Source: Caldilineaceae bacterium
GTDB lineage: Bacteria; Chloroflexota; Anaerolineae; Caldilineales; Caldilineaceae
NCBI GenBank assembly: GCA_965116395.1
Contig: OZ220684.1
Coordinates: 2,151,447-2,215,446, forward strand
Direction: 5' to 3'
Length of the DNA: 64,000 bases
This document shows positions 20,618 through 63,653 of the stretch, piece after piece. Under the pieces are notes generated by a model, which ran no database searches, was not told the DNA's origin, and worked only from the letters and a program-made list of their open reading frames with translations. The stretch's first letter is position 1; each line of letters starts with the position of its first letter. The translations under genes were made by a program, and so were the position numbers.

Positions 20618-20640
20618 ACTAAAAACTAGAAACTGAAAAC
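20618..20640. repeat. heptamer tract, family 1 (CTGAAAA/CTAAAAA-like)
   Basis: ACTAAAAACTAGAAACTGAAAAC. Its last 8 nt are the left target duplication of MITE copy A. Confidence 0.7.
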
Positions 20641-21092
20641 GAAACTACGCAGCCACAACTAATCTGCGATCCTGAATGAGGCGAGCAAAGGTGCTCTCTC
20701 AACTCTCTACTTTTATATGGGCGGTCGGGCCTTCGGCCCTCCCTTGTGCAGGGGCTGCGCCCCCGCAACGCCCCCCTACAAAACCATCGCTCACCGACCA
20801 TGTGTGCGCATTCCAGCAGCGTATCTAGCCACCAGTGTTTCCTCCCCCACTTGCCGCCTCAACCCACCGACCATCGACCGCTAATCTCCGGTGTTCCCCT
20901 GACGACTGGTGTTCCACAAAAAACTGAAAACTGAAAACTAAAAACTGCAGTTCCGACCGTGTGTGCGCATTCCAGCCGTGCGGCTCCAGCAACGTGGCAG
21001 CCGCGCCAACCGAATACGCAATCAGATTGCTTGAATGGCGGCAGGGATAAGGGGCTGGTCAAGACACGTACTGTATATGGCTGAGTAGTTAC
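20641..21092 (+). mobile_element. MITE-like element, copy A (rearranged, 452 bp)
   Basis: Ends GAAACTACGCAGCC / GGCTGAGTAGTTAC. Identical 8-bp flanks CTGAAAAC at 20633-20640 and 21093-21100. About 130 bp of unrelated sequence, including a heptamer tract, lies between two copies of CGACC(A/G)TGTGTGCGCATTCCAGC. Confidence 0.7.
20918..20947. repeat. heptamer tract, family 1, inside MITE copy A
   Basis: AAAAAACTGAAAACTGAAAACTAAAAACTG, period 7. Confidence 0.7.
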
Positions 21093-21118
21093 CTGAAAAC
21101 TAAGAACTGACCAAACTA
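21093..21118. repeat. heptamer tract, family 1, overlapping the stop codon of the isomerase gene
   Basis: CTGAAAACTAAGAACTGACCAAACTA. The minus-strand stop lies at 21116-21118. Confidence 0.6.
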
Positions 21119-36030: not shown

Positions 36031-36318
36031 TTATAGCGGCATCGCCGACGATTCTAACGCCTCGTCCACTTCAGTGCCTTCCCTCACCCACGCCCCAGCC
36101 ACCGCCTCAACCTGCCCCGCACCCCAGCCCCCATTCGCGACCACCAGCCGATACTGCTTCGTAATCGTCTCCCCAGCCCCGAACTCATACACCTCATCGA
36201 ACATGAAGGCGAAGCTGGCGCATGACGTACGGCGTCTGGCGCACGAACCACTTGTTGGGATAACGCAGATTGGCCGGATGGCCCAGAAAGGCCAGCGTTG
36301 ACGTGCGGCCGTTGCTGT
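36031..36318 (-). pseudogene. 5'-truncated, frameshifted copy of the 3' end of a DUF6807/PmoA-family gene
   Basis: It encodes ...STLAFLGHPANLRYPNKWFVRQTPY, then a 1-nt shift, then CASFAFMFDEVYEFGAGETITKQYRLVVANGGWGAGQVEA. This parallels the C-terminus of the intact gene at 37758..38699. DNA similarity is roughly 85% by eye. Confidence 0.7.
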
Positions 36319-36365
36319 CGTCGAGGGTCTAGGTAGGGTGCAGGGGGAACTAGCCTTCGCACTAC

Positions 36366-37757: not shown

Positions 37758-38699
37758 TCATCCCCGCCACGCCTCTGCCGCGGCCTCCACCTGTCCCGCA
37801 TCCCATCCCCCATTCGCAACCACCAGCCGGTATCGCTGCGTAATCGTCTCCCCCGCCTCGAACGCATAAACCTCATCGAACATGAACGCAAAGCTGGCGC
37901 AGGCGTACGGCGTCTGGCGCACGAACCACTTGTTGGGATAGCGCAGGTTGGCGGGATGGTCCAGAAAGGCCAGCGTTGACGCATTGCCGTTGCCGTCGTG
38001 GCGGCCCGTGTAGGCCAGCCAAGGTGCCTGCTCGCCCATCGCCTCCGCGCCTTCGTGCCCTGCCGCGGTGATGACCTCGCCGTTGTCGAACGAGCGCGGC
38101 CCCCGCCAGAACAACCCGCCATAACCGGCCAGCGGACGCCCTTCCGTCGTCGGCGAGCAGATGTGCAGCGTCTCGCCGCGCACATTGCGCAGGCTGGTCG
38201 TGAAGTCCAGCGTCCAGTAGCCGGCCTCCGCGTCGACCGTCTCCACCGCAATGCCCCGCGTCTCGTCGATCCAGTGCTCACCCGCCTGCGTGATCCACGA
38301 GAGCTTCTCCGTCGCCGCGAAGCGGTTGTCGTCCACCTCGATCGACTCCCAGCCGTCATGGCGCTGGCTGCCGTTGTTGGGCAGGTCGACATAGCCCTCG
38401 CCGTGGCGGTAGCTGCCCCCGCCCCAGAAGTTCTGGCCGTCCAGGTGGGCGATCGTCATCTGGATCCCCTTGTGCCACACATGGTCATGCGGGCGGTAGT
38501 TGGTGATCAGGTCGCCGGCCAGCGTGTTGACAGGGTGGAAAAACGGTTTGGGCGACTCGGACTGGGGCATGTCCGGATCATAGATATAGCGGAACAGCGT
38601 AACCGCCTCCCACTTCAATTCAAGCGAAGCAAATCCGGGCGTGCGGTGACTGTGCGGCGCGGTCTTTTCATTGCGTGTATGGGTAAGAGCGAGAGCCAT
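37758..38699 (-). CDS. DUF6807 (PmoA-annotated) family protein
   Basis: KPFFHPVNTLAGDLITNYRPHDHVWHKGI plus the C-terminal FAFMFDEVY...YRLVVANGGW pattern typical of this family. Confidence 0.7.
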   Translation of the reverse strand: MALALTHTRNEKTAPHSHRTPGFASLELKWEAVTLFRYIYDPDMPQSESPKPFFHPVNTLAGDLITNYRPHDHVWHKGIQMTIAHLDGQNFWGGGSYRHGEGYVDLPNNGSQRHDGWESIEVDDNRFAATEKLSWITQAGEHWIDETRGIAVETVDAEAGYWTLDFTTSLRNVRGETLHICSPTTEGRPLAGYGGLFWRGPRSFDNGEVITAAGHEGAEAMGEQAPWLAYTGRHDGNGNASTLAFLDHPANLRYPNKWFVRQTPYACASFAFMFDEVYAFEAGETITQRYRLVVANGGWDAGQVEAAAEAWRG

Positions 38700-38777: not shown

Positions 38778-38802
38778 ACTAAAAACTGGAAACTAAAAAC
38801 TA
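38778..38802. repeat. heptamer tract, family 1, containing the gatB stop codon
   Basis: ACTAAAAACTGGAAACTAAAAACTA. On the minus strand the gatB end reads AGT TTT TAG and runs into AGTTTCC AGTTTTT. Confidence 0.7.
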
Positions 38803-41469: not shown

Positions 41470-41755
41470 GTAACTACTCAGCCGCAACTGATACGCGACC
41501 CTGAATGAGGCGAGCAAAGGTGTTCATTCTCTCCTCATGATTGTCATATGGGCGGTCGGCCGCAAGCGGCCTCCCTTGTGCAGGGGCTGCGCCCCCGCAA
41601 CGCCCCCCTACAAAACCATCCCTCACCGACCGTGTGCATTCTTCGCAACCTGTCGGCTGGCGAGCATGGCGGCGGCTGTATACCAGTTGCGTCACCAAGA
41701 GCCTGAATGGTTCCAGGGATGACTGGCTGGTCAACTGCTGTGGCTTAGTAGTTAC
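41470..41755 (+). mobile_element. MITE-like element, copy B (286 bp, subfamily II)
   Basis: GTAACTACTCAGCC...GGCTTAGTAGTTAC termini and the conserved GC-rich core at 41550-41607. No matching flanking duplication was seen. Confidence 0.75.
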
Positions 41756-42156: not shown

Positions 42157-44880
42157 ATGTCAAGCGCCCAATTACATCGATCACAGTTAAGGCTGGCGCT
42201 CTCCCTTTCGATTCTGATTCCGCTCGCCCTGCTACTCACCGCCTGCGGAAACAGAAACGCGACCGCCACTGCCGCCGCCAACCTGTCAGCGCAGACCGAA
42301 ACACCCATACCTCCCGCCGCCAGCCCGCCCGCGCCGGCCGCAACGCCCAGTCCTGCCGCCAATGACACCGCAACAGCCACCCGCGCCGCCGCACCGGCTC
42401 CGTCATCAACGCCAGCGGCACAGTCGAACAGCTTAGCCCCCCGTCAGCGGGTCACGGTTGAGCCATTCGCGCCGGCATCCCCCTTGCAGCAGGCGGTCTG
42501 GTTCCACGAGGTCGGCGACTACAGCCAGGAGCAGCGCCTGCTCAGAACGCTGCTGGCCGACCCCCAGATAACGCTGGCCCAGCAGCAGGAAGCACGCTAC
42601 CAACTCGCTCTCTCCTTTCTCGCCGACGAACAGCCGGTGTCCGCCGCCAACGTGCTGGACCAGTTTTCGCTCCAGGCCGGCTCCCTGCCGGCAGATGACC
42701 CCCGCCGCAGCCGCACCGTTTTCCTGCGCGCCGAGGCGCTGGCCCGTGTGGGCCGCAACGCCGAAGCCGTCGCCGCCTACGAAGCTTTCCTGCAGCAGCA
42801 CCCTCACGTTACCAGTGTCGTCGCAGAGCGTATCGCCGATGCCTGGCTCGCGGCCGGCGACTGGCCGCAGGCCGCCAACGCGTTGCGCCGGGCCGCCGAC
42901 CATGCCGCCAACAACTGGGAAAAAGTTCGCCTTCTCGACCGGCTGGCCGGCACTCTCGAGGGCAATGGCCGCTGGAGCCAGGCCGCCTCTGTCTACGATG
43001 AAATCCTTGCCGCGACCGAGACGCAAGCGGAAGAGCGTAACCGGGACGACGTAGAATTCGATCAAATCCTCGGCTACAGAATATGGAACGTCCACCGGGC
43101 CAGCTATCTGTACCGCGCCGGAATCGCCTACGCAACCGCCGGCGATGAGGAAGCCGCTATCGTCCGCTGGCGTCTGGCCCTGGACGAAGATCCGGAGAGC
43201 AACTCCGCCTACCAGGCCCTCATCCAACTGGTGAACCGCGACGTACCCGTAGACCTCTTTGTACGCGGGCAGGTCGACCTGTTTGCCCAAGCCTACTTCC
43301 CTGCCATCAACGCCTATGACAGATTCCTTCAGGAAGCGCCGCAGGATGACCGCGCCGGGCAGGCCTGGTTGGGGCTTGGCCGCGCCCATATGGAGCTGGG
43401 ACAGTGGGACGAGGCCATCCGCGCCCTGGAACAGGTGATGAACTGGTATCCCGACTGCCCCTGTTTCAGCGATGCCTGGTTCACTCGCGCCCAGCTGGCC
43501 AATGCGCAGGGCTCGCCCGGTGCCGCCCGGCGCATCTATCGCACCTTCGCCAGGGATCACGCTGACCACCCGTTCGCCCCCGAAGCCCTCTGGCGAAGCG
43601 CGCTTTCCGCCATCGGCGCCGGCCGCGGCCTCGATACCGGCTCTGCAGGCCGCGCCGAGAGCTCAGCCGAATTCTTGGTTGAGGCCGTGTCTGACCTGCT
43701 GACGCTGGTGGACAGCTTCCCGGACAGCGCCCGCGCGCCCGATGCGTTGGCCGTGCTGGGGATCGGCGCCTTTACCTACGGTCATGTCGGGCTGGCTGCC
43801 ACCGGCTTTGAACGTCTGCTGGCCGACTATCCCGGTGTGCGGACGGGCACATCAACCTATTGGCTGGGTCGCGCCCGTTACGCCCAGGGCGAGCAAGACG
43901 CGGCCCAGGTCCTGTGGCAGTCGCTCGCCGCCCAAGAGCCGGAAACATATTACGGCGTGCTGGCCGCTGCCGAACTGACGCCGCCGGGCAATCCGGGGCA
44001 GGACATCATCCCCCGCATGGATGCCATGACCGCGGCCGCGCTGCCCAACGACGACGGCAGCCGCGCCTACGCCGAAAACTGGCTCAAGACGTGGCACGAC
44101 GCGCCCGAAACGACCGCTGCCGGCACCAGCAGCGGCAACTCAGGTCTGCCGCAAGCCGTAGCCGAAGACCCTGCCCGGATCGGCGGCGCACTGCTGCTGG
44201 ATCTGGATCTCCGCGCCGAGGGTTTGAAGCTGCTCGAACTGGCGTACTGGCGCTTCCGCGACGAGCCCGCGGCCCTGTTTCCGCTCATGCTTCACTTCGA
44301 AGAACTGGGCGCCAACCGGCTCTCCATCAGCGCCGCTTACCGTCTCATCGAACTCAGTCAGGTCCAACATACCGCCGATGTGCCCCTCTTTATCCAGCGC
44401 GTCGCCTACCCCAGACACTATGCCCACCTCGTCGAAAAGGAAGCCGCAGATTTCGACATCGATTCCCTGCTCTTCTACAGTCTCATCCTTCAGGAGAGCC
44501 TCTTCGAGCCGCCCGCCCGCTCCTTTGCCGGCGCCCACGGCCTGACCCAGATCATCCCCACCACCGGCGCAGAGATCGCGCAGCGCCTCAACTATCCCAA
44601 CTACTCCACCGGCCTGCTAAACCGTCCCTTCGTCAACGTTCGCTTCGGCGCGTACTACCTGCGCTGGGTACGGGATTACGCGCACGAAAACCCCGTCGCC
44701 GCCCTCGCCGGTTACAACGCCGGCCCCGGCAATGCCCGGGTCTGGTTCGAGCGCTCCGACTTCGACGAGGCCCTCTTCATCGAGCGCATCCCTTACAGCG
44801 AGACCCGCCTTTATCTGCAGCGCATCCTGACGCATTATGCGCATTATCTGCGGATATATGGGGGTACTAGTTTTCAGTAG
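42157..44880 (+). CDS. lipoprotein with TPR-like repeats and C-terminal lytic transglycosylase (SLT) domain
   Basis: Lipobox LLLTAC after MSSAQLHRSQLRLALSLSILIPLA. The C-terminus has SLILQESLFE...AGAHGLTQIIPTTG...AGYNAGPGN, the SLT catalytic-E and signature motifs. Confidence 0.8.
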   Translation: MSSAQLHRSQLRLALSLSILIPLALLLTACGNRNATATAAANLSAQTETPIPPAASPPAPAATPSPAANDTATATRAAAPAPSSTPAAQSNSLAPRQRVTVEPFAPASPLQQAVWFHEVGDYSQEQRLLRTLLADPQITLAQQQEARYQLALSFLADEQPVSAANVLDQFSLQAGSLPADDPRRSRTVFLRAEALARVGRNAEAVAAYEAFLQQHPHVTSVVAERIADAWLAAGDWPQAANALRRAADHAANNWEKVRLLDRLAGTLEGNGRWSQAASVYDEILAATETQAEERNRDDVEFDQILGYRIWNVHRASYLYRAGIAYATAGDEEAAIVRWRLALDEDPESNSAYQALIQLVNRDVPVDLFVRGQVDLFAQAYFPAINAYDRFLQEAPQDDRAGQAWLGLGRAHMELGQWDEAIRALEQVMNWYPDCPCFSDAWFTRAQLANAQGSPGAARRIYRTFARDHADHPFAPEALWRSALSAIGAGRGLDTGSAGRAESSAEFLVEAVSDLLTLVDSFPDSARAPDALAVLGIGAFTYGHVGLAATGFERLLADYPGVRTGTSTYWLGRARYAQGEQDAAQVLWQSLAAQEPETYYGVLAAAELTPPGNPGQDIIPRMDAMTAAALPNDDGSRAYAENWLKTWHDAPETTAAGTSSGNSGLPQAVAEDPARIGGALLLDLDLRAEGLKLLELAYWRFRDEPAALFPLMLHFEELGANRLSISAAYRLIELSQVQHTADVPLFIQRVAYPRHYAHLVEKEAADFDIDSLLFYSLILQESLFEPPARSFAGAHGLTQIIPTTGAEIAQRLNYPNYSTGLLNRPFVNVRFGAYYLRWVRDYAHENPVAALAGYNAGPGNARVWFERSDFDEALFIERIPYSETRLYLQRILTHYAHYLRIYGGTSFQ

Positions 44881-44898
44881 TCAGTTCTTAGTTTTTAG
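44867..44898. repeat. heptamer tract, family 1 (complement orientation), containing the SLT stop codon
   Basis: CTAGTTTTCAGTAGTCAGTTCTTAGTTTTTAG. TAG occurs in several frames, and the gene stop lies at 44878-44880. Confidence 0.7.
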
Positions 44899-45190
44899 GT
44901 AACTACTAAGCCATCTACAGTGTCTGTCTTGACCAGCCCCTTATCTCTGCCGCCATTCAGGCAATCTGATTGCGTATTCGGTTGGCGGCAGCCAGGTTGC
45001 TGGAGCGGCACTGCTGGAATGCGCACACAAGGTCGGTGAGCGATGGTTTTGTAGGGGGCGTTGCGGGGGCGCAGCCCCTGCACAAGGGAGGGCCGAAGGC
45101 CCGACCGCCCATAATACAAACATGAGGAGTGAGAGAAAACTCTTGCTGACCTCGTTCAGAGTTGCGAATCAGTTGCGGCTTAGTAGTTAC
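44899..45190 (-). mobile_element. MITE-like element, copy C (292 bp, subfamily I, inverted)
   Basis: Perfect 14-bp TIR GTAACTACTAAGCC / GGCTTAGTAGTTAC. Flanks GTTTTTAG and GTTCTTAG match 7/8. Confidence 0.8.
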
Positions 45191-47678: not shown

Positions 47679-48035
47679 GAGACCCCTCTTTTCGGGGCTG
47701 GGCTGAGGAACCTGCAGTTCACTGCCCTGTCCGGCTGTGTGCAGTTTTCAGGGAACCGCGTCAACGAAATGGCAACACTTCTCCTTTTGCCCTGTATAGG
47801 CTCGAGGGTGTCTCTGCAGATATGCGTAAAGTTTCTGCCACTGATGGGCGGCAATCCTTATGGTAGACATTCTACTATTGTCGCTAATGTGACAGAGCAA
47901 TACAAGTGTCAACGAGACCTGGTAGTCAGTTTTTGGTGACCCTGCACTTGAATAGCGGCCAGAGACGGCGCGGGTCGTCAGGCACTGTTCGCTGGCCTCA
48001 ACCGATCCAATTGTCCACGACGGTGGTCCAGCCAG

Positions 48036-48094
48036 GGCGGGGCGTTGCGGGGGCGCAGCCCCTGCACAAGGGAGGGCCGAAGGCCCGACCGCCC
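48036..48094 (-). repeat. isolated copy of the MITE GC-rich core (no arms, no TIRs)
   Basis: The reverse complement reads TGGGCGGTCGGGCCTTCGGCCCTCCCTTGTGCAGGGGCTGCGCCCCCGCAACGCCCC, identical in layout to the cores of copies A and C. Confidence 0.7.
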
Positions 48095-48099
48095 AAACT

Positions 48100-48123
48100 G
48101 CAGTGGTCAGTGGTTAGTGGCGA
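48100..48123. repeat. heptamer tract, family 2
   Basis: CAGTGGTCAGTGGTTAGTGGCGAG, immediately after the orphan core. Confidence 0.6.
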
Positions 48124-48162
48124 GGGGAGAGGGCCGCGAATCGAGTGTGGCAGTGCAGTTCA

Positions 48163-48196
48163 CCAAAAACTGAAAACTGACTACTAAAAACTGCCG
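48163..48196. repeat. heptamer tract, family 1, ending 2 nt from the permease stop
   Basis: CCAAAAACTGAAAACTGACTACTAAAAACTGCCG. Confidence 0.65.
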
Positions 48197-48197
48197 T

Positions 48198-49061
48198 TTA
48201 CCGGCCTGCCAGCCCGGTGAACTGCGCGCCCTGAATAAAATGGCGCTGCGCGAAGAAGAAGATGAGGATAACCGGCAAGATGGTGATCATCGACGCGGCC
48301 ATGACCAGATGCCAGAAGTTGCCGAAGCGCCCTTTGAACCAGAGGAGCCCGAGGGGCAGTGTGTACATTTCGCTCTTGGAAATGTAGATGAGCGGCTCCA
48401 TGAAGGCGTTGTAGTGCTGCAGAAAGGCGAAAATCGTGATCGTGGCGATGGCCGGGCCGCAGAGAGGAGCGATCACCTGCCACAGGATGCGGAAGTTGGA
48501 GGCGCCGTCGATCTTGGCCGCCTCGTCCAGTTCCAATGGCAGGGTCAACATATATTGACGCATGAGGAAGATATAGAACGCGCCGCCGAACCAGGCCGGC
48601 ACCCACAGCGGGTAGAAAGTCCCCACCCACCGGATCTCCTTGAAGATAATGAAGACCGGGATCATCGTCACGACGCCGGGCAGCATCATCGTCGCCAGCA
48701 GTACGGTGAAGACAAAGTTGCGCCCCGGCCAGCGCAGCCGCGACAGACCGTAAGCGACCGTGAGCGAACTCAACACCATGCCGATCGTCCCCATGAAGGA
48801 GACGAAAAAGGAGTTGCGGATGAAGAGATGGAAGGGGAGACGATCAAAGACGTCGATAAAGTTTGACCATCTGGGTTCCGTCGGTATCCATTCGATCGGT
48901 GTGATGAAGACCGCGCCCGGCAGCTTGAGCGATGTGCTGACCACCCAGGCCAGCGGCATGAGAAAGGTGATGCCCAAAGCGATCATCACAATGTGCAGGA
49001 CAAGATGACCGAGCCGCGCCTGCTTTTTTCTGGATTGGAGCAGAGATGTTCTTACAGTCAT
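48198..49061 (-). CDS. carbohydrate ABC transporter permease (MalG-like)
   Basis: Six-TM protein with the EAA loop LDEAAKIDGASNFRILWQVIAP. Confidence 0.9.
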   Translation of the reverse strand: MTVRTSLLQSRKKQARLGHLVLHIVMIALGITFLMPLAWVVSTSLKLPGAVFITPIEWIPTEPRWSNFIDVFDRLPFHLFIRNSFFVSFMGTIGMVLSSLTVAYGLSRLRWPGRNFVFTVLLATMMLPGVVTMIPVFIIFKEIRWVGTFYPLWVPAWFGGAFYIFLMRQYMLTLPLELDEAAKIDGASNFRILWQVIAPLCGPAIATITIFAFLQHYNAFMEPLIYISKSEMYTLPLGLLWFKGRFGNFWHLVMAASMITILPVILIFFFAQRHFIQGAQFTGLAGR

Positions 49062-52534: not shown

Positions 52535-52737
52535 GGGATTGTTCCTGTGTCTGAACGGCAGTGATTTGGGCGTTGTCTGCAGCGACGCTGAAGGGTGGGA
52601 TCCTGGGCGGTCGCTAAGGGATTGGAAGAAGGGAATGGGTTGGATTATACGGGGGGAGGGGGATTGGTGTCAAGCTTTTGGGGGTGGGTGTGGAACTGGA
52701 TGAGGTGGTGTGTGAAGGGAGAGCCAAAGGAAAGGGG

Positions 52738-53244
52738 TTACATTGGCTCCTGATCCTCGGCCAGAGAGGCTGCATAGTCAAAACGTAACTACTCAGCCGC
52801 AACTGATTCGCCAACCTGTACGAGGCGAGCAAAGGTGTTCTTTCTCCCCTCATTGTTGTATTTTGGGCGGTCGGCCGCAAGCGGCCTCCCTTGTGCAGGG
52901 GCTGCGCCCCCGCAACGCCCCCCTACAAAACCATGCCTAACCGACCGTGTGCATTCTTCGCAACGTGTCGGCTGGCGTGCATGGCGGCCGCTGTACACCA
53001 GTTGCGTCACCAAGAGACTGAATGGTTCCAGGGATGACTGGCCGGTCAACTACTGTGGCTTAGTAGTTACGTCAAAACAGGCAAGGATATCTTCGCGCGT
53101 GACAGAAGGATATTCCTGGAGGAGATCTTCGACGCTATCGCCGCAGGCAAGCATCCGCAGGATTAGATATACAGGGATGCGTGTTCCCTGGACACAGGGC
53201 TGTCCGTGACATACGTGGGGGTTGATGGTAATGCGATCGTTCGT
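52738..53244 (-). pseudogene. DUF433 gene disrupted by MITE copy E, with the start codon position mutated
   Basis: Minus strand reads ...NDRITINPHVCHGQPCVQGTRIPVYLILRMLACGDSVEDLLQEYPSVTREDILACFD, then the element, then YAASLAEDQEPM and stop. ACG replaces the ATG of the intact paralog. Confidence 0.7.
52785..53070 (+). mobile_element. MITE-like element, copy E (286 bp, subfamily II) with perfect 8-bp TSD
   Basis: GTAACTACTCAGCC...GGCTTAGTAGTTAC flanked by GTCAAAAC at 52777-52784 and 53071-53078. The paralogous locus has a single uninterrupted GTCAAAAC at 57023-57030. Confidence 0.85.
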
Positions 53245-54372
53245 TTCTTCATCCTCCGGGGCATTCGGCCATATTTCAATAAGACTGGCGCTATGGCTTG
53301 AAAGACACCACGTAGCTGCTTCCTGCGACGCTATGTCCAGTGGCCGAGCTCTCGCAATGCCTGATTCAGAAAACCGTCTGTCCAGCGATTACCGGATTCG
53401 GTTAGTGAGGTCGCCGGAACTGGGCCATCTGAGGGAGACAACGCCTGTGGGGAACCGCTATACTGGACATGAGAACATAGTTTCTGTCTCAATGCAGGCG
53501 GCACCTTCAGTTGGTCGGTTTCGTTTCCCACCATTCCTGGCCGAAGCAACGTTAGCGGTACCTGGTCAACAGTTGGTGCCCTGGAAATCAAGTGTCCTCC
53601 ATGAGCACGTGTCCTCGTGGAGCAACGCCCGGGGCGTTGTGATCTGAAACCCTGTTTCGACACACTATCGAAAGGTGCCATTATGAAACGCGTTCCCCGC
53701 GTCGTCACTGTTTTCGCGTTCTTCTCCCTGCAGCCTGCCATGCTACTGGCACGGGACGAAGAGCGCGCCCTCGCCGGCCTGGCCGGGTAGCTCGCTGCTC
53801 TGGTCGACCGCGTCACCACAGTAGAAGCCAAACTCGAACCCGTCACAACTGTGGGCGACCCTTGCGTCCAACACGCCAGGGGCCAGCAACAGTGCGAAAC
53901 TGTGACCAGGCACCTCGACACCTTCGAGGCGCATCGTAATTCGTCACTGATCGCGCCTGAGGCCGTCCGCTACGACGCCGTTTTCAGTTTCGCCATCCGC
54001 CCGTTTTCTGAGGCCTTCGCCGCCCGCATCGTGACCGAGACCTGGCACGCCCGCGAGGTCCTCGATGTCGGCGAGAGGGTAAACGTTGAGGACAATCGCG
54101 GCGCTCTATCGGTTCCGCCAGACGGCCTACGACGGCCCAAAGCGTGCGCACAACAGAAAGCACAACGCGCCGCGCGACGAGGCAAACCCTGGGCTTCTGT
54201 CAGCTCTCCGCCGGCCAAGCTATGCCCGCACTGCGCGGAGCAGCTGAAGGCGGAGGCCACTACCTGTCGCTTTTTGCAATGCAGCGCTGGCCGCGGACTG
54301 ACGACTCGCCGCCGGTCGAGTACAAGATTGTATCCGTTTCGTGTTTGGAATCTGGAGAGAGGAGAAGTAAAC

Positions 54373-54618
54373 ATGGAATTTCCAGTGATAGCCTTCACCT
54401 TAATTATGTTCGCCGTCTCTGCCGTAGTAGCGGCTTCGACCAGGGGGCTCGAACGTCATGTGCTCTGGTTTTTCATGGGTCTGCTTTTTGGCCCGTTCGG
54501 CCTGCTCTGGACGCTGCTCGCGCGGCCGCCGGGCAAGCCATGCCCGCACTGCCGGGAGCACGTGAAAGATTGGGCGCTCGTCTGCCCCCGTTGCACCAGG
54601 GATCTGGCTGAAGCCTGA
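54373..54618 (+). CDS. small membrane protein with C-terminal zinc ribbon
   Basis: ATG preceded by GGAGAGAGGAG. Two hydrophobic segments, then CPHC...CPRC. Confidence 0.5.
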   Translation: MEFPVIAFTLIMFAVSAVVAASTRGLERHVLWFFMGLLFGPFGLLWTLLARPPGKPCPHCREHVKDWALVCPRCTRDLAEA

Positions 54619-55154
54619 GGACTGCGACTTCCTGGCTCTCATTCCCCCGAGGTAAGGACCTGGCGCTGACAGGCGTCAGATCCTTATCCACTTCATGCAA
54701 CGAAAGCGCCGACCTATGCCCATCCATCCCGAAATGTGCGATCTCTACCTCTGACTGGCCCGCTATCAGCAGGCGCAACTGTTCCGAGCGCGCCAGTAGC
54801 ACCGTACCCGTACTTCTCAACCAGAATTCCCTGGCTATCCTGCCTGTGCGAGAGGTGGTTCTCGGCGTCCCACACCGGCGAATGACAGCTGGGCAGCCCC
54901 CTGCTGCGCACGGCCATATTGCCGCTGGGGTTGTAATGTACGCGGCCAGCGGTATCGATGCAGCCGGCCGCCTTTCCTGCCCCTTGGCTTGCCACATCAA
55001 CCTGTGAGAGTCACGTTCGGCGCCGACATTTCTGATTCGGGAGGATAATGTCCCGAAACCGGTAGATCGCGGCGGGACAAGGCGCGCCCGCGCAAGGTAG
55101 TCTATAGAGTAAGAACTTTATCAATGACGCATTTCCACGCAGGAGAATCCAGCT

Positions 55155-56618
55155 GTGATAAAAACTTTCACGCTCGGGCTTCTATTTTTCCTCGGCGGAG
55201 CTGCCGTCTTGAATCTCTCCTCTTTCGCGATAAGGCCTTCCCTTACCCCATCTTCAGAATCCTCCCCGCCAGTAATCGGCGAAGAACCTGCTCTGAAACA
55301 GCATATCAGCCAGGAAGAGATCGAAGCGGGCCGCTTCACTCTCGAAGAGCTGCTCAGGCACGGACGCGCCGTCTTCACCGCCAGTTTCAACACACTTGAC
55401 GGCGCAGGCCGTCCTGAGCTGACAGGAACAGGCCAGCCGCGCAAGAGGCGGATGATGCCGGACAACTTCAATCGCATCTCAGCGCCTGACGCAAACTCAT
55501 GTTCGGGCTGCCACAATCTCCCCACCACAGGCGGCGGCGGTGACAACGTGGCCAATGTGTTCGTATTGGGACAACAGAACCCCTTCGTCAACTTCGATGG
55601 CGACCCGGTAGAGAATGGGCCGAATCAGACCCTTAAGACTGTGGGCAACGAACGCAGCACAGTCAGCGTTTTCGGCGCCGGCTTCATCGAACTGCTGGCC
55701 CGTGAGATGACGACCGATCTGCATGCTCTGCGCGCGTCGGCGCTCAGCCAAGCCATCAGCACAGGCCGGGAGACCACCGTCGAACTGGTGACCAAGGGGG
55801 TCCATTTCGGCACGCTCACATGCTATCCTGACGGCACAGTAGACACCTCCCGGGTCGAAGGCGTGGATGCCGACCTGATCATCCGCCCCTTTCATCAGAA
55901 AGGCGCGGTGGTGTCCCTGCGCGAGTTTTCCAACAACGCCACGAATCATCACCACGGTATGCTGTCGACCGAGCGGTTCGGCGAGGACAATGACCTGGAC
56001 GGCGACGGCCGCGTAACTGAGTTGACCGTGGGTGATATCACCGCCCTGACCCTGTTCCAGGCAACGCTGCCCGCACCAATACAGGTGGCGCCCGCTACCC
56101 AGGCCGAAAGAGAGGCTGCTGCGCGCGGGCGCATCGTCTTCGACCAGATCGGCTGTTCCGAGTGCCACATTCCAGAGATGCCGCTCGCCAGCCTTGAATT
56201 CGTCGAACCGGGCCCGTACAATCCGCAGAACAACCTGCGGCCCGAGGATGTCAATGCTACCTACCAGGTCGACCTGTCGCCCTACATAGAGAACGTGAAA
56301 CAGGACGAAGAAGGAAACTTCCTCATCCCTGTCTTTACCGACCTGAAAAGGCACGATATGGGTGCGTTTCTCGACAATGAGGCAATTGTGCAGGGAGGGA
56401 TCCCTACGCAGTTCTGGCTGACGAGAAAGTTGTGGGGCTTCGCTTCGGAGCCACCCTACCTGCACCATGGACGGGCCACATTGATCTCCGAAGCCATCCT
56501 GGCGCACGGCGGCGAAGCGCTGAAGCAAAGGAACGCATTTGCCAACCTGGAGCAGGCGCAGCAGGCGGAGTTACTGGAATTCCTTCTGACTCTTCAAATA
56601 GAAGGCGGCGAGCAGTAG
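55155..56618 (+). CDS. di-haem cytochrome c peroxidase-like oxidoreductase (DUF1111 family)
   Basis: Signal peptide and two CxxCH haem motifs (CSGCH, CSECH) with DUF1111-like spacing. GTG start. Confidence 0.8.
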   Translation: MIKTFTLGLLFFLGGAAVLNLSSFAIRPSLTPSSESSPPVIGEEPALKQHISQEEIEAGRFTLEELLRHGRAVFTASFNTLDGAGRPELTGTGQPRKRRMMPDNFNRISAPDANSCSGCHNLPTTGGGGDNVANVFVLGQQNPFVNFDGDPVENGPNQTLKTVGNERSTVSVFGAGFIELLAREMTTDLHALRASALSQAISTGRETTVELVTKGVHFGTLTCYPDGTVDTSRVEGVDADLIIRPFHQKGAVVSLREFSNNATNHHHGMLSTERFGEDNDLDGDGRVTELTVGDITALTLFQATLPAPIQVAPATQAEREAAARGRIVFDQIGCSECHIPEMPLASLEFVEPGPYNPQNNLRPEDVNATYQVDLSPYIENVKQDEEGNFLIPVFTDLKRHDMGAFLDNEAIVQGGIPTQFWLTRKLWGFASEPPYLHHGRATLISEAILAHGGEALKQRNAFANLEQAQQAELLEFLLTLQIEGGEQ

Positions 56619-56693
56619 ACGGTCGTTGCCCTCCGAGAGGAAGAGAAAGGCGACAGAGGAACGACGCGGACAGACGCGTGTATTAGCCAACCG

Positions 56694-56902
56694 CTACCCA
56701 CACAAATCCTCGATCAGCCGCGTATAAATCTCCACCGCCTCATGTAACTGCTCGACCGCGATCCACTCGCCGACCGTGTGGGCCTGGTCGATGTTGCCGG
56801 GACCGAGCACCAGCGCGTCCATATACTCCTGATAGCACGACGCTTCAGTGCCGTAGGGGACTGTCACCGCACGCGGCGCGCCGGTCGCACGGAATCGCTC
56901 TG
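56694..56902 (-). pseudogene. orphan 3' end (about 68 codons) of an M20 peptidase gene
   Basis: Nearly identical over about 150 nt to the 3' end of the gene at 59893..61005 (GCGTATAAATCTCCACCGCCTCATGTAACTGCTCGACCGCGATCCACTCGCC...). Homology stops at 56902. Confidence 0.75.
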
Positions 56903-56983
56903 GTGGAGCGGCCGGATGCGGCGTATGGGCATATGCGGGAACTGAACGCGGTGGTGTGTGAGGGGTGAGCCACAGGTGAACAG

Positions 56984-57196
56984 CTACATCGAAATCTGCA
57001 CCGCGTCCAGAGAAGCTCCATAGTCAAAACAGGCAAGGATATCTTCGCGCGATATAGAGGGATATTCCTGGAGGATGTCTTCGACGCTATCGCCGCAAGC
57101 AAGCATACGCAGGATTTGATAAACGGGAATGCGTGTCCCCTGGATACAGGCCTGTCCGTGACACACTTGGGGGTCAAAGGTAATCCACTCGTTCAT
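56984..57196 (-). CDS. DUF433-family protein (antitoxin-like)
   Basis: MNEWITFDPQVCHGQACIQGTRIPVYQILRMLACGDSVEDILQEYPSISREDILACFDY matches the DUF433 pattern (dP.vc.G.P.i.GTRipV..il). Confidence 0.8.
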   Translation of the reverse strand: MNEWITFDPQVCHGQACIQGTRIPVYQILRMLACGDSVEDILQEYPSISREDILACFDYGASLDAVQISM

Positions 57197-57451
57197 TGTT
57201 TCATCCTTCAGGGAACGTGGCCATATTTCGATCGGACTGGCGCTCCGGTCTGAGAGATACTATGTAGCAGTCTTTTGTTGCCAATTGAAAGGTTTGGACA
57301 CGATGTACGTGACTTCGTAACCGGACAGTTGGGAGCCAGGGAGACAATGCCAGGGGCAACGCCAATCCCCGCGCCCGCGACATCGCGCCTATGCGGTTGG
57401 ACTATCCTGCTTGGAGGTATATCCGGGAAATGGAATTACATTGCTTCACTA

Positions 57452-58536: not shown

Positions 58537-58815
58537 ATGGCTAAGAGGAGACATACGCCGGAGCAGGTAATCAAAAAGCTCAGAGAGGCTGAGGTGGCGC
58601 TAGCCGAGGGCGGCACAGTGGCTGAGGCTGCGCGCCGGATAGGCGTGACCGAGCAGACCTTCTATCGGTGGCGCAGCGAGTATGGGGGTCTCAGGATCGA
58701 CCAGGCCAGGCGCCTGAAGCGTCTGGAGTTGGAGAACAGCCGTCTGAAGAGAGCGGTGGCGGAGCTGACGCTGGACAACCAGATACTGCGGGAGGCGTCT
58801 GAGGGAAACTTCTGA
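58537..58815 (+). CDS. IS3-family transposase OrfA (HTH)
   Basis: MAKRRHTPEQVIKKLREAEVALAEGGTVAEAARRIGVTEQTFYRWRSEYGG...LELENSRLKRAVAELTLDNQIL. Confidence 0.85.
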   Translation: MAKRRHTPEQVIKKLREAEVALAEGGTVAEAARRIGVTEQTFYRWRSEYGGLRIDQARRLKRLELENSRLKRAVAELTLDNQILREASEGNF

Positions 58816-59671
58816 GTCCTTCACGTCGTCGCCAGTGCGTTGACCACGTGAAGGCGCGCTTTGGGGTTTCGGAGCGACGCGCCTGCCGGGTGCTGGGTCA
58901 TCCTCGCTCCACACAGCGATACAAGCCAAGCCCTGCGGACGATGAGAAGGCGTTGACTGAGGAGATCGTGGAGTTGGCCAGTCAGTTCGGCAGGTACGGC
59001 TACCGTCGGATCACCGCCCTTCTGAGGCATCGCGGCTGGCATGTGAACCACAAGCGTGTAGAGCGGATTTGGCGACGTGAAGGGCTTAGGTACCGGCGAA
59101 GCAACCGAAGAGAGGGCGTCTGTGGTTCAATGACGGCTCGTGTGTGCGTCTGCGGCCTGCGTGGAAGGACCATGTGTGGGCCTACGACTTCGTGTATCTG
59201 AGGCTCCATGACGGCACAGGAGTGCGGTTGCTGACCGTCATCGACGAATACAGCAGGGAGTGTCTGGCGATCCAGGCTGCCCGCAGCATGCGGTCTGCCG
59301 ATGTGATAGAGGCGCTGGCCGAGTTGATGGTGTTCAGAAGCGTGCCCGACCATATTCGGTCGGACAACGGGCCGGCGTTTACGGCCCGGGCTGTGCGCGA
59401 GTGGCTTGGGCGGGTGGGAGCCAGGACGCTCTATATCGAACCTGGGTCGCCGTGGGAAAATGGCTACATCGAGAGTTTCAACGGGAAGTTGAGGGACGAG
59501 CTGCTGGACAGGGAGCTCTTCTATACGTTGCTGGAGGTGCGCGTGTTGACGGAGCGCTACAGACGGACTTACAACCGGATCAGACCGCACAGTTCTCTGG
59601 GCTACCGGCCGCCGGCGCCTGAGGCCCTCTTGCCTGCCGACCCTGTCCCCGTGCCTGTTGGACTAACATAA
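58803..59671 (+). pseudogene. IS3-family transposase OrfB (DDE), with an extra frameshift
   Basis: The -1 frame opens at the slippery heptamer GGGAAAC (58803-58809). A second shift near 59086-59091 separates ...RIWRREGL from (VPA)KQPKRGRLWFNDGSCVRLRPAWKDHVWAYDFV. The DDE core continues with ...IRSDNGPAF...PGSPWENGYIESFNGKLRDE. Confidence 0.75.
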
Positions 59672-59892
59672 CAAGTGGTACAAACATCGGGGGCAGGTCA
59701 CTCTGGAAAATAACATTGCCGGCATTTCACTCTCCCCAATTTTTCCCCTGAATCTGGAAAGAACATCGTAAGCCCCGAACTGTTCATTGCCTGAGGTAAT
59801 GGTTATAGTCAGCCACCGTTTACATCAAGATTGGAGGAGAGATGGATAATGTTCAAATAGTAATTTAGCCGCCAAATGACCTGGACCACCCA

Positions 59893-61005
59893 CTACCCAC
59901 ACAACTCCCCAATCAACCGCGTATAAATCTCCACCGCCTCATGTAACTGCTCGACCGCGATCCACTCGCCGACCGTGTGGGCCTGGTCGATGTTGCCGGG
60001 GCCGAGCACCAGCGCGTCCATATACTCCTGATAGCACGACGCTTCAGTGCCGTACGGAACGGTCACCGCCCGCGCCGCGCCGGTGGCGCGGCAGGCCGCA
60101 TGCGCCAGCGGGCCGTCCGCGTCGGCAAAAAACGGGCCGCCGCCGCTGTGGACCGCGTCCAGACCGTGGGCTTCCGCTCGCTCCACGACCATTTGCATCG
60201 CTTCCTCGAAACAGGCGTCGGGCATGGCCCGCAGTTTGAGGGTGGCGACGGTTCGCGCTGCGGTCACATTGGAGGCGGTGCCGCCGTCATTGATCACCAG
60301 GTTGAAGCCGTTTGTGGGCGGGTCGAAGAGCGGGGTCTGGAAGCGTTCTTCCGTGCGGAAGGTCTTAGCCAGCTCCGCCATCTCCGCCAGGAACGGGGCG
60401 ATCTTGAAGTTGGCCGACTCGCCTTTGTCGGTGCTGGTGTGCGCGGCCACCCCGTGCGCGGTGGCGATTATGCTGCCGCCCCCCTTGTGCGCATAGACCG
60501 GCTGCAGCTGCGATGGCTCGCAGACGATGCAGTATTGGGGCCAGCCGCCCGTCAATGTCTGCGAGCGTACGACGATATCGTGCGCGCCGGTGTGTCCCCG
60601 CTCCTCGTCCGAGGTGACGGCGATGACCAGCGGCCGCTCCAGATCAGCAGCGTTGAAGCGGCAGGCCGCTGCAATCGACGCCGCCAGGGGGCCCTTCATA
60701 TCGGCCGAGCCGCGGCCCACCAGGCGTCCATCTTCCAGCACCGGCGTGAACGGCTCCCAGCCGGCGTCGCCCGGCACCGTGTCCGAATGGCTGAACAGGC
60801 CCAGCCCGCCTTCTCCGGCGCCCTTTTTCGCGACCAGGCTGACCTTCTCCACGTCGAACTGGTCAATGTAGGACAGCTCCTCGACCGCGAAGCCGCCTTC
60901 CTCCAGCACCCCGCGCAGAAAATCGGAGATCGCCCGATTGCTCGTCGGCGTCTCCGAGGGCATTGCGATCAGTTCACTGGTAAGTTCGACAACGTCGATC
61001 TCCAT
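59893..61005 (-). CDS. M20-family metallohydrolase (ArgE/DapE/ACY1-like), paralog 1
   Basis: HSDTVP, GRGSADMKG and SDEERG metal-ligand motifs. Confidence 0.85.
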   Translation of the reverse strand: MEIDVVELTSELIAMPSETPTSNRAISDFLRGVLEEGGFAVEELSYIDQFDVEKVSLVAKKGAGEGGLGLFSHSDTVPGDAGWEPFTPVLEDGRLVGRGSADMKGPLAASIAAACRFNAADLERPLVIAVTSDEERGHTGAHDIVVRSQTLTGGWPQYCIVCEPSQLQPVYAHKGGGSIIATAHGVAAHTSTDKGESANFKIAPFLAEMAELAKTFRTEERFQTPLFDPPTNGFNLVINDGGTASNVTAARTVATLKLRAMPDACFEEAMQMVVERAEAHGLDAVHSGGGPFFADADGPLAHAACRATGAARAVTVPYGTEASCYQEYMDALVLGPGNIDQAHTVGEWIAVEQLHEAVEIYTRLIGELCG

Positions 61006-61092
61006 GGCACTGCCCTTTCTTATCGGATTTTCTATCGTGCAGCTCCGAAAAAGCCCCGCACTCAGGGCGACCAGCGGCCCACCTGCTGATTA

Positions 61093-62205
61093 CTACCCAC
61101 AAAGATCCTCGATCAGCCGCGAGTACACCTCCACCGCCCCCTGCAACTGCTCGACCGCGATCCACTCGCCGACCGTATGGGCCTGCGCAATGTTGCCGGG
61201 CCCGAGCACCAGCGCTTCCGCATACTTCTGATAACACTCGGCCTCAGTGCCGTAGGGCACGGTGACCGCTTCCGGCGCGCCGGTCGCACGGCAGGCTGCC
61301 TGCGCCAGCGGGCCGTCCGCAGTGGCGAAGAACGGGCTGATGCTCCAATGCTCCACCTCCAGGCCGTGCGCTTCCCCCCGCCCCACAACCATCTGCACCG
61401 CTTCTTCGAAGCAGGCGTCGGGCATGGCGCGAATACTCAGGCGGACCACTGTACGCGCCGCGGTTACGTTGGTGGCGGTATCGCCGTCGCTGATCACCAT
61501 GTTGAAGCCGTTCGTTGGCGGGTCGAAGAGCGGATTCTGGAAGCGTTTCTCGCTGCGGAAAACCTGTACAAGATCGGCCATTTCGGCGAGAAAGGGGGCG
61601 ATCTTAAAGTTGGCTGACTCGCCCCTGTCGGTGCTGGTATGCGCGGCGAACCCCCGCGCCGTGACCGTGATGCCGGCGCCGCCCTTATGCGCATAGACCG
61701 GCTGCAACTCGGTCGGTTCACAGACGATGCAGTATTGGGGCCAGCCGCTCGTCAACGTCTGCGAGCGGATAACGACGTCGTGCGCGCCGACATGTCCCCC
61801 CTCCTCATCCGCGGTGACGACGATCACAAGCGGCTGCTTCAGGTCGTCGTCCTTGTAGCGGCAGGCCGCGGCAATCGACGCCGCCAGAGGACCCTTCATG
61901 TCGGCAGAGCCGCGTCCCACCAGGCGTCCATTTTCCAGCGCCGGCGTGAACGGCTCCCAGCCGACGTCGCCCGGCACCGTGTCCGAATGGCTGAACAGGC
62001 CCAGCCCGCCGGCCCCCGCGCCCCTCTTGGCGACCAGGCTGACCTTTTCCTCATCGGACGGGTCGATATAGGTGACTTCCTCGACATCGAAGCCGCCCTC
62101 CTCCAGCACCCCGCGCAGAAAATCGGAGATCGGCCGGTTGCTCGTGGGCGTCTCCGAGGGCATTGCGATCAGTTCACTGGCAAGTTCGACAACGTCGATG
62201 TTCAT
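61093..62205 (-). CDS. M20-family metallohydrolase, paralog 2 (tandem duplicate)
   Basis: Same motifs. Collinear with paralog 1 at roughly 80% amino-acid identity by eye. Confidence 0.85.
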   Translation of the reverse strand: MNIDVVELASELIAMPSETPTSNRPISDFLRGVLEEGGFDVEEVTYIDPSDEEKVSLVAKRGAGAGGLGLFSHSDTVPGDVGWEPFTPALENGRLVGRGSADMKGPLAASIAAACRYKDDDLKQPLVIVVTADEEGGHVGAHDVVIRSQTLTSGWPQYCIVCEPTELQPVYAHKGGAGITVTARGFAAHTSTDRGESANFKIAPFLAEMADLVQVFRSEKRFQNPLFDPPTNGFNMVISDGDTATNVTAARTVVRLSIRAMPDACFEEAVQMVVGRGEAHGLEVEHWSISPFFATADGPLAQAACRATGAPEAVTVPYGTEAECYQKYAEALVLGPGNIAQAHTVGEWIAVEQLQGAVEVYSRLIEDLCG

Positions 62206-63360: not shown

Positions 63361-63653
63361 GAAACTACGCAGCCACAACTGATCTGCGATCCTGAGTGAG
63401 GCGAGCAAACGTGTTCTTTCTCTCCTCATGATTGTCATATGGGCGGTCGGCCGCAAGCGGCCTCCCTTGTGCAGGGGCTGCGCCCCCGCAACGCCCCCCT
63501 ACAAAACCATCGCTCACCGACCTTGTGTGCGCATTCCAGCAGCGCCGCTCCAGCAACCTGTCTGCCGCCATCCGAATACAGAATCAGATAGCCTGAATGG
63601 CGGCAGGGAAAAGGGCTGGTCAAGACTGGCACCGTATATGGCTTAGTAGGTAC
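63361..63653 (+). mobile_element. MITE-like element, copy F (293 bp, subfamily I arms with subfamily II hairpin)
   Basis: GAAACTACGCAGCC...GGCTTAGTAGGTAC. Flanks GTTATTTC (63353-63360) and GTCATTTC (63654-63661) match 7/8. Confidence 0.8.

Follow-up and report, generated by a model that had tools for sequence, protein, structure and literature searches.

How does a short, non-coding repeat come to lie within a gene whose paralog, 4 kb away, is uninterrupted? This question is raised by a 64,000-nucleotide stretch of a Caldilineaceae bacterium genome (contig OZ220684.1, positions 2,151,447 to 2,215,446), the whole of which is referred to here as the window. Caldilineaceae are abundant filamentous Chloroflexota. 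In the window, a 286-bp element, which we call c4, separates a DUF433 gene from its own 3′ end. Our analysis points, with a probability that we put at about nine in ten, to c4 being a non-autonomous IS66-family miniature inverted-repeat transposable element (MITE), from the group with a single open reading frame (ORF) that resembles ISBst12, which transposed into the 3′ region of the DUF433 gene. The insertion of c4 is ordinary mobile-DNA biology. A separate question, regarding a strongly conserved segment that is carried inside the element, is discussed after the insertion itself.

The insertion into the DUF433 gene

The junctions of c4 were fixed by direct reading, by a repeat finder and by BLAST. 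The left flank (52771-52784) reads TGCATAGTCAAAAC, the element starts with GTAACTACTCAGCC and ends with GGCTTAGTAGTTAC, and these 14-bp terminal inverted repeats (TIRs) agree in 13 of 14 positions. The sequence GTCAAAAC abuts both ends as a perfect 8-bp target-site duplication (TSD); the chance of such a duplication is ~1.5e-5 per given pair of ends. The preliminary description of this locus, which was made from the sequence alone, had given the same length, borders and duplication, and on direct reading these were exact. The TIR pattern matches 14 times in the window when up to three mismatches are allowed, against 3.8 matches expected, and none of 100 shuffled sequences reached 14. When the filled and the empty locus were aligned with MAFFT as raw sequence, no single clean 286-bp gap opened.

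Between its TIRs c4 has an interior of ~260 bp that contains no transposase gene. It shares 93% identity with copy c2 in the window and 88-95% with 286-bp copies from other Caldilineaceae assemblies. The copies are 286, 292 and 293 bp long, so that their indels are not multiples of three and a conserved ORF is impossible. Frames may run through the element: a minus-strand frame at 52785-52880 stays open through the left TIR into the flanking DNA, and at another locus (L141:10214-11971) a stop-to-stop frame spans the whole MITE and continues into the gene that lies downstream. Neighboring ORFs will be extended too far into the MITE by gene callers.

Read on the minus strand, the gene runs up to ...EDILACFD, is followed within c4 by VTTKPQ and a stop codon, and beyond c4 the frame resumes as ...FDYAASLAEDQEPM and its own stop, because the element and one copy of the duplication together make 294 nt (286+8), or 98 codons. 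The insertion thereby swaps the last 12 DUF433 codons for six element-encoded codons and a stop, with truncation after residue 58. This translation bears out the disrupted frame that had been reported earlier, including the break after ILACFD. Both the rejoined protein and the paralog match Pfam DUF433 (PF04255) over the full model length (E 3e-25 and 9e-26; 88.2 and 89.9 bits with a gathering cut-off of 23.6). The flanks of the filled and empty loci are homologous across both junctions, with 83% identity on the right (53071-53316 vs 57023-57268) and 75% on the left (52692-52784 vs 56938-57030), and the view that c4 splits a DUF433 gene with an intact paralog 4 kb away was thus upheld. The paralog string CCATAGTCAAAACAGGCAAGG is indeed uninterrupted, although its position had been given one base off and is really 57018-57038. 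A look-up of the paralog protein by exact sequence gave no recorded entry. The coordinates of the features are collected in Table 1.

Table 1. Features of the MITE family and of the DUF433 loci in the window (positions are those of the 64,000-nucleotide stretch).
Feature	Position	Strand	Remarks
MITE copy c1, subfamily B, 452 bp	20641..21092	+	TSD CTGAAAAC 8/8; 159-bp internal insert
MITE copy c2, subfamily A, 286 bp	41470..41755	+	no TSD (TCTATATG / GAATTCCG)
MITE copy c3, subfamily B, 292 bp	44899..45190	-	TSD GTTTTTAG / GTTCTTAG, 7/8
MITE copy c4, subfamily A, non-coding	52785..53070	+	286 bp; probably IS66-derived (ISBst12-like group)
MITE copy c5, 293 bp	63361..63653	+	subfamily B arms, A-type hairpin; TSD GTTATTTC / GTCATTTC, 7/8
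Left TIR of c4, GTAACTACTCAGCC	52785..52798	+	direct reading and TIR pattern scan
Right TIR of c4, GTAACTACTAAGCC on the minus strand	53057..53070	-	direct reading and TIR pattern scan
TSD of c4, left copy, GTCAAAAC, 8 bp	52777..52784	.	single copy at the empty paralog site and in orthologs
TSD of c4, right copy, GTCAAAAC, 8 bp	53071..53078	.	abuts the right end of c4
Disrupted DUF433 gene, 5′ part, 58 codons	53071..53244	-	translation; Pfam DUF433 on the rejoined protein
DUF433 gene, detached 3′ end, YAASLAEDQEPM and stop	52738..52776	-	aligns with paralog and ortholog C-termini
Intact DUF433 paralog, 70 aa	56984..57196	-	empty target site GTCAAAAC at 57023-57030
Two-hairpin core of c4, ~60 nt	52864..52923	-	strand assigned from G·U pairs
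Core in the other window copies	20717-20776, 41549-41608, 45053-45112, 63440-63499 (approx.)		
Core without IS66-type TIRs	48039..48102	-	between inverted heptamer arrays, about 47921-48185

Empty orthologous sites and the age of the insertion

A search of related genomes for empty sites, which had been proposed with the preliminary description, found such sites in five assemblies. The nearest intact relatives of the rejoined DUF433 protein are 81-88% identical to it, and the DNA of three was traced. In four loci (L235, L236, L238 and L239) a 70-aa DUF433 gene lies directly upstream of PhyH and SBP_bac_1, as in the window, and in a fifth (L241) an intact DUF433 gene lies upstream of PhyH with one extra ORF between them; the target site is uninterrupted in all five. 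BLAST of the first four against the window gives two segments that end at 53071 and at 52782/52784, whereas their own DUF433-PhyH locus is contiguous. In L236, L238 and L239 these two segments share exactly 8 bp of the query, GTTTTGAC. The orthologous empty sites are stronger evidence than the comparison with the paralog.

Two close strains carry the insertion: one (L113, ENA assembly ERZ25070917) is 99.93% identical to the window over 5.4 kb and the other (L114) 98.1% identical over 5.2 kb. Since the orthologous sites are empty and those of both strains are filled, the insertion is the derived state. Judging by these comparisons, it is older than the split of the two ~98% strains and younger than the species split at ~90% identity.

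What became of the gene after the insertion can be followed at its start codon (53242-53244), which reads ACG in the window and in L113 and ATG in L114 and in the orthologs. While the window copies and all of the orthologs cover the full Pfam model, the filled copy is truncated and startless, and no alternative start that gives at least 40 aa was found in its frame, either in the window or in the near-identical twin. The 98% strain L114 has kept the ATG, with a predicted 64-aa product that ends in VTTEPQ. The filled copy is a decaying pseudogene that lost its ATG after the insertion, because ACG is found in the window and L113 but ATG in L114, which bears the same insertion.

Several features of the surrounding DNA touch on this locus. 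The two DUF433 copies (52692-57268) bracket ~4 kb with a zinc-ribbon ORF, a DHOR di-haem gene and a 3′ fragment of an M20-peptidase gene. Related genomes have one DUF433 gene, located between PhyH and DHOR (L235, L236 and L241) or between PhyH and another gene (L238 and L239), and therefore the arrangement in the window looks recombinant or duplicated. A perfect sigma-70 consensus (TTGACA-18 nt-TATAAT, 12/12) is found on the minus strand at 52644-52673, ~110 nt upstream of the PhyH start, in the stretch that separates PhyH from the detached DUF433 3′ end.

Other copies and target preference

The window contains five TIR-bounded copies and one degenerate unit, which gives six cores in 64 kb (Table 1). 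The TSDs and flanks differ among the copies, and therefore GTCAAAAC belongs to the target and not to the element, a point on which the preliminary description could have failed. The flanks of copy c2, which has no duplication, recur in a metagenome contig, and its state suggests a possible rearrangement between two copies. The 159-bp insert of c1 (20796-20954) includes a heptamer array and duplicates CCGACC.TGTGTGCGCATTCCAGC; it is a piece of a tandem-type unit without TIRs and resembles the tail of such units.

For a wider view, species-representative genomes were scanned with the TIR pattern. Among the matches listed, most are in Caldilineaceae metagenome-assembled genomes (MAGs), and the rest in Thermoflexales, Anaerolineales and unrelated phyla; pairing of these listed matches gave ~65 short elements of 103-333 bp, mostly with perfect 8-bp TSDs. 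We found 74 distinct insertion loci bearing the core in other assemblies. Altogether, 120 distinct short elements bounded by TIRs were compared: the TSD agrees in 8/8 positions in 59 and in 7/8 in 27 (86/120 with 7-8). A ninth base agrees in 20 of the 59 elements, near the chance level, and the duplication therefore ends at 8 bp. The target consensus of the 120 elements is the A/T-rich, 8-bp S-W6-S, and GTCAAAAC fits it.

A-rich heptamer arrays, such as CTGAAAACTGAAAACTAAAAAC, are common between genes and are repeated hot spots both for the MITE and for the full-length insertion sequence (IS) described below. The heptamers CTGAAAA, CTAAAAA and CTGACTA fit the S-W6-S target. In the window, arrays are found at 20619-20640, 20924-20945, 21093-21112, 36903, 38779-38800, 44870-44898 and 48164-48200. 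TSDs such as GTTTTTAG and CTAAAAAC recur at unrelated loci. At one locus (L025:129-1866) a pair of TIRs that lie 1738 bp apart and are flanked by a perfect CTAAAAAC TSD enclose the end of a core-bearing MITE and a PIN-domain gene; this unit may be a composite or cargo-carrying element.

The parent insertion sequence

Which transposase could have moved such an element? Its GTAA ends had been compared to those of IS66, and this likeness was borne out by full-length ISs of 1566-1606 bp with the same 14-bp TIR and perfect 8-bp TSDs. One of them, 1588 bp long (L040:6086-7673), has the TSD AGACAAGA (8/8) and a right end that is exactly GTAACTACTCAGCC; further full-length elements among the TIR matches listed are in L085 and L004 (1606 bp). 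The ISs in L242-L244 have the A-variant TIR GTAACTACTAAGCC at both ends. In the Caldilineaceae genome OZ242287 one relative of this transposase, P0161, occurs three times, each time in an IS of 1566 bp whose GTAACTACTAAGCC ends are perfect, as is its 8-bp TSD (GTAGTCAG, GTTTTTAG and CCCTGATC), and the same genome carries core-bearing MITEs of the c4 family (L013 and L023).

Each full-length IS has a single ORF of 493-495 aa without the IS66 accessory genes tnpA and tnpB. Its product matches the Pfam families DDE_Tnp_IS66 (E 6e-44), zf-IS66 and DUF6444 (PF03050, PF13005 and PF20042), and at least 7,973 homologs were found at E <= 1e-60 among the best 8,000 candidates that were scored. The same TIRs, the 8-bp TSD and the single-ORF IS66 transposase together identify the parent as the single-ORF branch of IS66. 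In that branch ISDge4, a member of the ISBst12 group, was reported to have one ORF, to end in the TIRs GTGACTACTCAGCA / GTAACTGCTCAGCA and to be flanked by a direct repeat of 8 bp (PMC12898284). The 14-bp ends of the MITE match the TIRs of this Deinococcus geothermalis element in 12 of 14 positions, and both have the 8-bp direct repeat. The autonomous relatives found here of the ISBst12 group, to which ISBst12 of Geobacillus stearothermophilus also belongs, are 1.57-1.6 kb long with one DDE_Tnp_IS66 and zf-IS66 ORF, whereas c4 is 286 bp long, has no transposase and has an interior unlike that of the IS, with a hairpin core that is absent from the ISs. The MITE was also considered as a simple internal-deletion derivative of the IS; this was rejected, as the sole shared interior is one inverted 21-nt motif.

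In other phyla we found ISBst12-type MITEs of 103-270 bp with the same TIRs and perfect TSDs that lack the core. The occurrence in many phyla of 103-330-bp elements with the same 14-bp ends and perfect TSDs suggests that this transposase group needs little beyond the ends. The proposed mechanism is that c4 was mobilised in trans by an IS66-family DDE transposase of ~495 aa that would recognize its ends and make a staggered cut of 8 bp. The S-W6-S target in which c4 sits, GTCAAAAC near the DUF433 3′ end, is duplicated. The move may have been cut-and-paste or copy-in, as the TSD fits either.

A conserved two-hairpin core

Within the MITE lies a segment that is far better preserved than the rest. 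We aligned 35 copies that were picked by TIR alone. In the 59 columns of the core block, 43 are invariant and there are 3 singleton changes, in contrast to 11 invariant columns and 119 singletons among the 196 columns of the arms (Fisher p=1.5e-10); singleton changes are thus ~12-fold depleted in the core. The arms diverge by 20-30% between subfamilies, whereas the core is almost invariant across species.

The core can be drawn as two hairpins, and both vary in sequence with the pairing kept. Hairpin 1 occurs as GGGCC-TTC-GGCCC, GGCCG-CAAG-CGGCC or GGGCG-CAAG-CGCCC, and hairpin 2 as GCAGGGGC-TGC-GCCCCCGC or GCGGGGGG-ACT-CCCCCCGC. When read on the minus strand, 97.7% of the alignment cells across 16 pairs are standard, and in two pairs both partners have changed; G·U pairs account for 32 cells, which on the plus strand would be A·C. 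The predicted fold is -41.4 kcal/mol (z -3.1) for the minus-strand core and -33.3 kcal/mol (z -1.25) for the plus-strand core. An invariant stretch between the hairpins reads ACAAGGGAGG on the minus strand and CCTCCCTTGT on the plus strand; to our eye, the former looks like a Shine-Dalgarno sequence and the latter like an anti-Shine-Dalgarno sequence.

Searches for a known identity of the core were negative. Rfam gave no match in the whole window at gathering thresholds and, for 52700-53150 with E up to 10, two matches at chance level (E 1.2 and E 4). Scans of c4 and c2 for promoters and terminators found no consensus site of either kind. The core pattern is absent from the viral contigs that were scanned, and nothing therefore suggests carriage by phages. 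The ORFs within 1.2 kb of the cores were clustered for ~230 loci, with no recurring transposase-like ORF; the clusters are artefacts of MITE translation or common ABC-transporter families. An autonomous element that carries the core was accordingly rejected as a candidate, since no transposase is found among these clusters. Only 2 of ~200 cores lie inside ORFs, and the copies are mostly intergenic.

The core is also found outside the MITE. When metagenomes were scanned with the core as seed, the flanks were long enough in 106 contexts; 49 of these have IS66 TIRs on both sides, 24 on one side and 33 on neither. The TIR-less cores are partly decayed MITEs and otherwise units of ~150-170 nt (core and tail) that are flanked by heptamer arrays, and in L013:600-1100 and L095:1500-2000 TIR-less units form tandem arrays with a period of ~200 bp. 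Around some TIR-less cores (L128, L120, L125, L138, L165 and L215) different inverted ends are seen (GTGCATCCCCAA... / ...TGGGATGCAC), and there are hints of a possible second non-autonomous family that shares the core. A second TIR type around such cores (GTGCATCCC...) was considered and dropped, with one complete example (L128, 473 bp).

Orientation relative to neighboring genes

The orientation of core-bearing MITEs was determined at 68 distinct loci, taken from L001-L234 and the window. With gene calls from a crude caller based on GC content at third codon positions (GC3), the gene at the left end of the element points away from the MITE at 41 of 56 distinct loci (p=7e-4). Where the flanking genes are co-directional, the sense strand is the minus strand in 20 contexts and the plus strand in 3. 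The left-adjacent gene is more biased than non-adjacent genes (235:194; Fisher p=0.004), and as the latter are divided only 235:194, a cause that is purely linked to replication is unlikely. An account by outward promoters is likewise unsupported, because c4 and c2 have no promoter or terminator consensus. The TIR-less cores show no orientation bias.

Weighing the explanations

Some results weigh against a transposition of c4 by an IS66-type enzyme. Copy c2 lacks a duplication even though its TIRs are perfect, and ~21% of the 120 bounded elements have a TSD of at most 4/8, which is consistent with later recombination. A tblastn search with the IS66 transposase gave no match in the 64-kb window, hence there is no autonomous IS66 element in it, and none of the 120 listed transposase clusters had a longest contig that matches this strain, which weighs on current mobility. 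Moreover, beyond the 14-bp TIRs the MITE shares with the full-length IS just the 21-nt motif GGGATGAAGGGCTGGTCAAGA, which overlaps the C-terminal codons of the transposase and is inverted relative to the IS end. One could instead suppose a repeat of another kind, such as a repetitive extragenic palindromic (REP) sequence or bacterial interspersed mosaic element (BIME), in which the TSD and the filled and empty loci arose by chance or recombination. The high copy number, with six cores in 64 kb, the GC-rich hairpins and the modular interior would all suit such a repeat, and c4 indeed resembles REP/BIME and BOX sequences as a high-copy, GC-rich intergenic hairpin with modular or tandem forms and strand-specific pairing. 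REPs, however, have no TIRs and no target duplication, and are tied to RAYT (Y1) transposases and GTAG or CGTC tags (PMC3733652). The c4 family differs in having precise TIRs and a TSD, perfect at c4 and of 7-8/8 in 86/120 elements; orthologous sites hold exactly one copy of the target, and ISs that encode a transposase have identical ends. Beside the cores we found neither a conserved GTAG or CGTC tag nor a Y1-type gene, where GTAG is not conserved and many copies read GGAG. An origin of this kind is given almost no probability by us, and for c4 a REP-type or chance origin is excluded. The earlier statement that the locus is evidence for transposition rather than for a REP-type repeat therefore stands on the TIRs, the TSD and the empty sites, although the TSD cannot separate cut-and-paste from copy-in. 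The c4 family also resembles classical MITEs (Correia/NEMIS of Neisseria, ERIC/IRU, RUP and Nezha): both are short, have TIRs and TSDs without a transposase, are present in many, mostly intergenic copies, may fold as RNA, and form subfamilies and mosaics. They differ in the parent IS family, the TSD length and the target, which for the c4 family is 8 bp at S-W6-S and for Correia elements is TA. Another difference is that here one sub-segment is far better conserved than the rest and exists outside the MITE as well.

Transposition of c4 leaves the question of why the core is so well preserved. One explanation is that the core is a host-level module of ~60-75 nt, a structured RNA or a protein-binding site, for which the MITE is merely the vehicle; its copies would be kept by selection, with the core acting on its neighbors, for example within a 5′ untranslated region, in the processing of mRNA or by binding a global regulator. 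We see this as possible, if doubtful. It would account for a core that is near-invariant across species next to divergent arms in copies ascertained by TIR alone, for the two compensatory pair changes and the hairpin length variants, for the G·U pairs and the stronger predicted fold of the minus strand, for the 33/106 metagenome contexts in which the core stands without IS66 TIRs, some of them in tandem, and for the orientation bias (41/56, and 20 vs 3). Yet there is no Rfam family and no promoter or terminator consensus in the element, the covariation comes from very few independent events among related copies, the TIR-less cores are unbiased in orientation and the neighboring genes are heterogeneous. 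Such a module is compatible with the transposition of c4, a copy that breaks a gene and does not regulate it. Alternatively, the core may be kept for the spread of the element itself, as a site in cis on which a host factor or a second transposase would act (for example HUH/Y1 hairpin ends), where just the copies with an intact core seed new ones, as in REP or IS200/IS605-derived elements. The TIR-less units of core and tail, some in ~200-bp tandem arrays beside heptamer arrays that end in CTGCAGTT, are in line with this, and one-strand hairpins that tolerate G·T pairs suit single-stranded DNA as well as RNA. The core is, however, absent from the ISBst12-type MITEs of other phyla and from the full-length ISs, so that IS66-type transposition needs no core; no recurring transposase-like ORF lies beside the cores at ~230 loci, and selection of master copies alone would leave private mutations in the resident copies. 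A role in spread is thus unlikely in our opinion. Preservation of the core through homogenisation between copies is another option. Our own proposal for the family as a whole is more speculative, and we put it forward with considerable reserve: the MITE family might be the carrier of a structured module of ~60-75 nt that is under purifying selection in each resident copy. We would, no less tentatively, picture this module as a P1 helix and two hairpins around the invariant ACAAGGGAGG / CCUCCCUUGU, existing also in TIR-less and tandem form. That it works on the strand co-oriented with the left-end gene is a conjecture of the same doubtful standing.

Significance of the repeat

The repeat now has exact ends, a TSD length, an S-W6-S target preference and a parent IS group, which is useful for annotation. 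At six cores per 64 kb it may litter Caldilineaceae genomes, and it will break assemblies and create false ORFs. Most of the MAGs and metagenomes with the repeat are, as we take from their record names, wastewater or bioreactor samples. Our literature searches returned no account of MITEs that belong to the single-ORF IS66 (ISBst12) group, no link between ISBst12 and MITEs, and no report of MITEs in Caldilinea; papers that mention both Chloroflexi and MITEs, mostly judged by title, yielded no description of this family. The near-invariance of the core in dozens of separate copies across species, its strand-specific pairing and its biased carriers are what one would expect if it were a functional RNA or a binding site. 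If the family is indeed the carrier of a selected module, an IS66-type transposase would have distributed a cis-acting element, either an RNA or a protein-binding site, over what extrapolates to hundreds of intergenic positions in each genome, and the result could be a dispersed regulatory or RNA-processing network, akin in spirit to Correia or REP sequences, with a motif that has not been described.

Other features of the window

Three further features of the window lie apart from the element. A 300-nt segment is present in three copies that are 71-80% identical (56693-56992, 59892-60191 and 61092-61391). Two of these form the 3′ ends of paralogs of 370 aa that lie in tandem (59893-61005 and 61093-62205), and the third is an orphan 57-aa fragment that adjoins the intact DUF433 gene. 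An IS3-family element is located at 58537-59671, with orfA (HTH_Tnp_1) at 58537-58815 and an integrase-core ORF that is split (58848-59201 and 59144-59671) and may be frameshifted or degenerate. A direct repeat of ~240 bp, unrelated to the MITE, is found at 36088-36326 and 37767-38004, where the two copies are 1.68 kb apart and 86-89% identical.

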